DNA of 64,000 nt from Escherichia phage vB_EcoP-CHD5UKE1. Shown piece after piece: positions 44,422 through 44,746 of the stretch. Both the position numbers and the translations under genes were made by a program. The notes beneath the pieces were generated by a model. That model worked only from the letters and a program-made list of their open reading frames with translations, was not told the origin of the DNA and searched no databases. Every line of letters begins with the position of its first letter. Within the stretch, counting starts at the first letter, position 1. Location: the sequence record NC_070989.1; one strand, given 5' to 3'.

Positions 44422-44746
44422 CTTTTCTCCAGTGATCAACGAATTGCTGAAACACTTTACGGTCAAATGTGAAATTACGAGCAATTCCGCATTCTCTAAA
44501 AGTGGCAGGCATATAATCTACATCACCTTCAGATAAAAAAAAAAAAAAAAAAAAAAAAAAAAAAAAAAAAAAAAAAAAAAAAAAAAAAAAAGCAATTCCG
44601 CATTCTCTAAAAGTGGCAGGCATATAATCTACATCACCTTCAGATGTATGATCATAGACTTGAATAAGCTTTTTAATCTTATCCTTCTCTCTTCGAGGAA
44701 GCATCCTAAATGCCTCCTGAATATCTGTAATGTGTTTGATTTTCAT
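44402..44746 (-). CDS. hypothetical protein (114 aa as written; 77 aa without the in-frame 111-nt insertion)
   Basis: ORF interrupted in-frame by a duplicated 55-bp segment plus poly(T) on the coding strand, giving a poly-Phe run. Confidence 0.4.
   Translation of the reverse strand: MKIKHITDIQEAFRMLPRREKDKIKKLIQVYDHTSEGDVDYMPATFRECGIAFFFFFFFFFFFFFFFFFFLSEGDVDYMPATFRECGIARNFTFDRKVFQQFVDHWRKDGKESL
44480..44645. repeat. Perfect 55-bp direct repeat (44480-44534 and 44591-44645) flanking a 56-nt homopolymeric A tract (44535-44590)
   Basis: Read directly from sequence; both repeat copies identical. Confidence 0.95.

Follow-up and report, generated by a model that had tools for sequence, protein, structure and literature searches.

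A tract of 56 A residues that lies between two identical copies of a 55-nt sequence (X) in this phage record is almost certainly an artefact of assembly and finishing, in which an untrimmed 55-nt contig overlap and a 56-nt poly(A) unitig would have been moved inward when a circular contig was re-opened. This verdict is inferred from comparative and arithmetic evidence rather than observed in reads. The stretch of DNA that was analysed (the window, 64,000 nt) is, as judged from its similarity to other phage records, a phiEco32/SU10-like E. coli podophage (Kuravirus). The consequence is that 111 bases of the record are spurious and that its 114-aa poly-Phe protein is not genuine and should be corrected to a 77-aa protein of PHROG 4452; removal of 111 nt (for example 44535-44645) restores the 77-aa gene. 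The biological importance of the poly(A) site itself is nil.

Sequence X (AGCAATTCCGCATTCTCTAAAAGTGGCAGGCATATAATCTACATCACCTTCAGAT, 55 nt) occurs exactly twice in the window, with 100% identity between the copies (Table 1), and the description in the earlier note of a 56-nt poly(A) tract between perfect 55-bp direct repeats inside an open reading frame (ORF) was confirmed in both its coordinates and its identity. Extension of the repeat fails at the first base on both sides, the preceding base being G in one copy and A in the other and the following base A and G, respectively. Copy 2 of X begins with A, so that the raw A-run is 57 nt. The surplus material at the site amounts to 37 codons (111 nt). 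In the rest of the window there are no runs of A, T or G of 7 nt or longer and a single C7, and the direct repeats of at least 30 nt are limited to one other family, which is diverged and lies within a tail-fibre gene. Because the window is otherwise nearly free of long homopolymers and long direct repeats, chance cannot explain the X-A56-X arrangement. The tail-fibre family (11159-11604) consists of a 74-nt unit present three times, at 11159, 11441 and 11531, with 62-74% identity, and these units probably code for a Gly-rich structural motif that recurs in the protein. A functional role for the poly(A) tract was also considered and dropped, since no intrinsic-terminator-like site was found and a search of Rfam gave no relevant match (one sub-threshold sRNA match lies elsewhere), leaving neither terminator-like structure nor RNA family to account for it.

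Table 1. Features at and near the repeat-poly(A)-repeat site, with window coordinates, proposed reading and supporting observations.
Feature	Position	Strand	Reading	Basis
X copy 1	44480-44534		Probable 3'-terminal 55-mer of the original assembler contig; genuine phage sequence, single in relatives	Exact repeat; Bas91 alignment stops at 44534; one copy in 8/10 independent contigs
Poly(A)	44535-44590		56 nt = k+1 for k = 55; probable de Bruijn homopolymer unitig or tip, non-phage	No Bas91 counterpart; none in 51 GenBank relatives or 10 contigs; SPAdes precedent; toy graph
X copy 2	44591-44645		Probable 5'-terminal 55-mer of the original contig, an untrimmed redundant k-mer overlap	Exact repeat; Bas91 alignment restarts at 44591, with 55 nt overlap
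Chimeric ORF	44402-44746	minus	114 aa, made by 111 extra bases; true gene = 77 aa, PHROG 4452	
Nucleotidyltransferase ORF	48209-49627	minus	472 aa; 3.56 kb from the site	Full-length match to phrog_12715 'nucleotidyltransferase'

The insert is confined to this record among all the sequences with which it was compared. A megablast search returned approximately 100 related phage records, of which the closest was Escherichia phage LorandFenyves_Bas91 (PQ850614), with 99.6% identity over 43000-46200, approximately 99% over most of the window and alignment blocks of 97-99.5%. Across a 381-nt region spanning the site, Bas91 is identical at every base (270 nt), save that one copy of X and the 56 A residues are missing. 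In the whole-window BLAST comparison the alignment to Bas91 breaks off at the end of the first copy of X and resumes at the start of the second, the two alignments overlapping by 55 nt (Bas91 41840-41894) and leaving 56 nt of the window unaligned between them. In a more sensitive search, the matched span was 111 nt shorter than the query span in 51 of 51 GenBank phage records covering the site (270 versus 381, 262 versus 373, 269 versus 380 and 268 versus 379). Assemblies of different samples in Logan, ENA and NCBI supplied ten further independent contigs, which were reached through the PhoH protein encoded nearby. Eight of these hold one exact copy of X and two only a diverged version; the longest A/T run in the ten is 6 nt, and alignment to them is interrupted at the same pair of coordinates, again with 55 nt of overlap. 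The insert is therefore missing from 61 of 61 comparators (51 GenBank records and 10 contigs), and at the site the relatives read CAGAT followed directly by GTATG, with no A-run.

The lengths at the site are those of a particular kind of assembly. SPAdes and metaSPAdes have a default word set of 21, 33 and 55, the largest being 55, and from a circular genome such assemblers write out a linear contig in which the last k bases are found at both ends. Both lengths fit a de Bruijn assembly with k = 55, the overlap being k (55) and the homopolymer unitig k+1 (56). In a toy graph built with k = 55, a circular model genome gave a unitig with identical 55-nt ends, and reads consisting only of A gave a unitig of 56 nt; addition of one chimeric read turned X into a branch vertex, with a tip of X+A55 and a loop of A56. 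Moreover, when (X...X)+A56 was concatenated and re-opened at the first bases of the window, the product was identical to the window at each of its 64,000 bases. Position 1 of the window aligns to position 1 of the records of SU10, phiEco32 and YF01, and the sequence has therefore been rotated to the conventional origin of the family. As the origin was re-opened, the original contig ends must be internal to the record, and the X-A56-X site is their location.

The phage genome is terminally redundant and would therefore have assembled as a circle when short reads were passed to a de Bruijn assembler with a largest word of k = 55, and the assembler would print that circle as a linear contig with its first and last 55 bases alike (X...X). 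Reads consisting only of A would emerge as a homopolymer of 56 bases (k+1), forming a small contig of their own or a tip after X. Had the contig, with its untrimmed overlap and 56 A residues, then been taken for a circle and opened again at the conventional phiEco32/SU10 start, the old contig ends would have shifted to 44.5 kb, giving ...X + A56 + X... at that point. The arrangement at the site, the lack of the insert in the relatives, the rotated origin and the agreement of the lengths with k and k+1 are demonstrated; the particular assembler, and whether A56 entered as a separate contig or as a tip of the graph, are steps that we infer. The source of the A-only reads is open to speculation, and might lie in chimeras, in carrier nucleic acid of poly(A) or in bases called beyond the ends of fragments.

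A close precedent for these steps has been reported for coliphage 132, in which a SPAdes assembly yielded overlapping ends of '55 bp' that were taken as circularity, together with 'a 56-bp poly(G) artifact' contig, and the phage contig was then 're-opened' to fit the reference start (PMC8483715). A 55 bp overlap of contig ends has likewise been read as a sign of circularity elsewhere (PMC8851603). Identical ends of 55 bp, a homopolymer of 56 bp and re-opening to a reference are thus common to coliphage 132 and the present record. In coliphage 132, however, the homopolymer was poly(G) and stood in a contig of its own, and the two artefacts were taken out before the sequence was deposited, whereas in the present record it is poly(A), and the homopolymer and the overlap were both retained inside the re-opened sequence. 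That the documented precedent is poly(G) and not poly(A) counts against an artefact, as does the rarity of long poly(A) with flanking repeats among the IMG/VR contigs sampled, which suggests that this end product is uncommon. Nevertheless, an exact overlap equal to k, a homopolymer of k+1, the lack of the insert in colinear relatives and a rotated record are together what a junction artefact at k = 55 should leave. The suggestion in the earlier note of a circular-contig junction at a k-mer overlap, with spurious poly(A), is accordingly strongly supported by the k+1 length of the tract, the re-opened origin and the 61 relatives that lack the insert. The signature of an exact repeat of length k, a homopolymer of k+1 and the repeat again provides a simple, checkable flag for this class of error in phage genome databases.

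The gene in which the site falls bears the marks of the same arithmetic. The 114-aa ORF contains 18 consecutive Phe residues and a duplicated SEGDVDYMPATFRECGIA, and the claim that an in-frame 111 nt had converted a 77-aa ORF into a poly-Phe ORF proved correct. Once the insert is taken out, the phrog_4452 profile is matched in full (positions 1-72 of 72), whereas the protein that retains it gives a match broken into two stretches. The Bas91 counterpart, Bas91_0056, is 77 aa in length and annotated as 'anti-restriction nuclease', and the gene at the same position encodes 77 aa in all ten independent contigs. Exact-match searches with the 114-aa protein and with two large structural proteins gave no match, nor did BLAST against plasmids and E. 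coli genomes. The 114-aa poly-Phe ORF is a by-product of the artefact, and the real gene encodes 77 aa. Since 2k+1 = 111 is divisible by 3, the in-frame property needs no selection; the frame stays open simply as a matter of arithmetic when k is 55, and is no sign of selection.

An artefact might also have arisen entirely within the assembly graph, the assembler itself threading from X through a poly(A) node and back to X by way of chimeric or low-quality reads, with no separate contig joined on and no overlap left untrimmed. Poly(A) k-mers form a hub node in de Bruijn graphs, and the branch vertex, tip and loop produced by one chimeric read in the toy graph speak for such a path. In addition, a contig in IMG/VR in which the same 27-mer flanks approximately 180 A residues at two places (described below) shows that assemblers can emit an X-poly(A)-X arrangement. 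Threading within the graph would, however, require two independent chimeric junctions, one from X into A and one from A into X, where the finishing model requires one or none, and it ignores the re-opened origin, which by itself predicts an internal contig junction. This route is considered very unlikely.

The IMG/VR contig came from a survey of 139 long A/T runs in that database for flanking repeats, in which it was the one contig with comparable architecture among the matches listed. In IMGVR_UViG_2706794495_000003 a 27-mer, TTTCTCGCAAACCTGGGTTTAAGCGAC, flanks a run of approximately 182 A (locus L038, 2607-2850), and the reverse complement of TTTCTCGCAAACCTGGGTTTAAGCGAC flanks approximately 184 A at a second site (locus L039, 1360-1600); one more long A-run is present in the contig (L037). 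The arrangement has the look of a further X-poly(A)-X artefact of assembly, here within a public viral contig. It resembles the present site in having that architecture within an assembled viral contig, but differs in its 27-nt repeat, in its tracts of approximately 182-184 A, in the occurrence of both orientations at two sites, in having come from another assembler or parameter set and in not having been re-opened to a reference. A second locus (L085) was rejected as a comparable case, being merely A/G-rich low-complexity sequence. The loci numbered L014-L133 comprise at least 120 stretches of viral contigs with A/T runs of 56 nt or longer, and many of the listed runs occupy the very ends of contigs (positions 1-56), so that homopolymer tips would seem to be frequent among public viral contigs. 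The junction of X with poly(A) gave 0 matches in IMG/VR and the JGI metagenomes, and the intact junction also gave 0 exact matches there, which makes the comparison uninformative, and it was not used.

A further alternative is that the insert is real. A staggered break with 55-nt overhangs within the 77-aa gene would have been filled in to give a 55-bp target-site duplication, with the poly(A) added by a template-independent nucleotidyltransferase or an activity resembling that of a reverse transcriptase; the assembler may then have collapsed a longer true tract to k+1 = 56. If true, this would be the first footprint of a poly(A)/target-duplication insertion in a bacteriophage. In formal terms, target-primed retro-insertion leaves just such a footprint of poly(A) between direct repeats, the ORF remains open, and a nucleotidyltransferase with a weak PolyA_pol head match is encoded 3.56 kb away. 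Against this, the duplication would have to equal the default k and the tract k+1, both exactly, and the open frame is already given by 2k+1 = 111. A homopolymer of 57 bp would, moreover, be highly unstable in replication, and none of the 61 relatives carries the insert. Taken together, these points make a real insertion extremely improbable.

The resemblance to retro-insertion is limited. Insertions made by target-primed reverse transcription carry cargo 5' of the poly(A), are flanked by duplications of approximately 7-20 bp, depend on a reverse transcriptase and are found in eukaryotes. The site shares with the footprints of non-LTR retrotransposons and processed pseudogenes an A-tract between perfect target repeats. 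In contrast to them, it lacks cargo that ends in poly(A), nothing but A lying between the copies of X; its repeat is 55 bp, equal to an assembler k; and the host is E. coli. The Bas91 annotation (130 features, in a genome 99% identical to the window) includes no reverse transcriptase. The suggestion in the earlier note of a target-site duplication left by a template-independent or reverse-transcription-like insertion thus found no support, there being no cargo, no reverse transcriptase annotated in Bas91 and no relative with the insert. That note had set the two explanations side by side and made no choice between them, and is borne out in part, for the artefact and not for the insertion.

A variant of the real insertion names the enzyme, in that a double-strand break with long staggered ends would have been repaired after addition of poly(A) by, for example, the phage's own PolyA_pol-like nucleotidyltransferase, the match to k and k+1 then being a coincidence or the result of collapse of the tract. 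The earlier note had pointed to this gene some 3.5 kb from the site, and the gene does exist, with its match to phrog_12715. The Pfam PolyA_pol head match is, however, weak, at 18.6 bits under a cut-off of 23 bits, and relatives that have the enzyme lack the insert. The homologue in Bas91 is Bas91_0067, and an equivalent gene of 437-456 aa is present at the same position in the 10 contigs, in two of which it is split. Because Bas91 and the 10 contigs (in the latter as judged by position and size) have the enzyme gene and are all without the insert, comparison of these sequences indicates no association between the nucleotidyltransferase and the insert, and the variant is given next to no credence. 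The nucleotidyltransferase ORF is conserved across kuraviruses, and some of its homologues have weak or faint precomputed matches to Gad2.

Three further readings were rejected: slipped-strand expansion of a homopolymer (a contingency tract), as the relatives have no seed A-run and slippage would not duplicate 55 nt of unique sequence; wrap-around or self-concatenation of the window, as no long repeat joins its ends; and, by inference, contamination with a polyadenylated transcript, as the genes here lie on the minus strand, so that the tail of a sense transcript should be seen on the plus strand as poly(T) preceding X and not as poly(A) following it.

Apart from the site, some other features of the window were observed. 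Four segments (32242-33118, 35168-35595, 36918-37253 and 42423-42807) do not align to the otherwise approximately 99%-identical Bas91, and represent small replaced or inserted modules in the arm carrying early and replication genes; at these segments, HNH homing endonuclease genes are present in some relatives and missing from others. The GC skew flips sign sharply at approximately 30000-31000, in coincidence with the switch from structural genes on the plus strand to early and replication genes on the minus strand.
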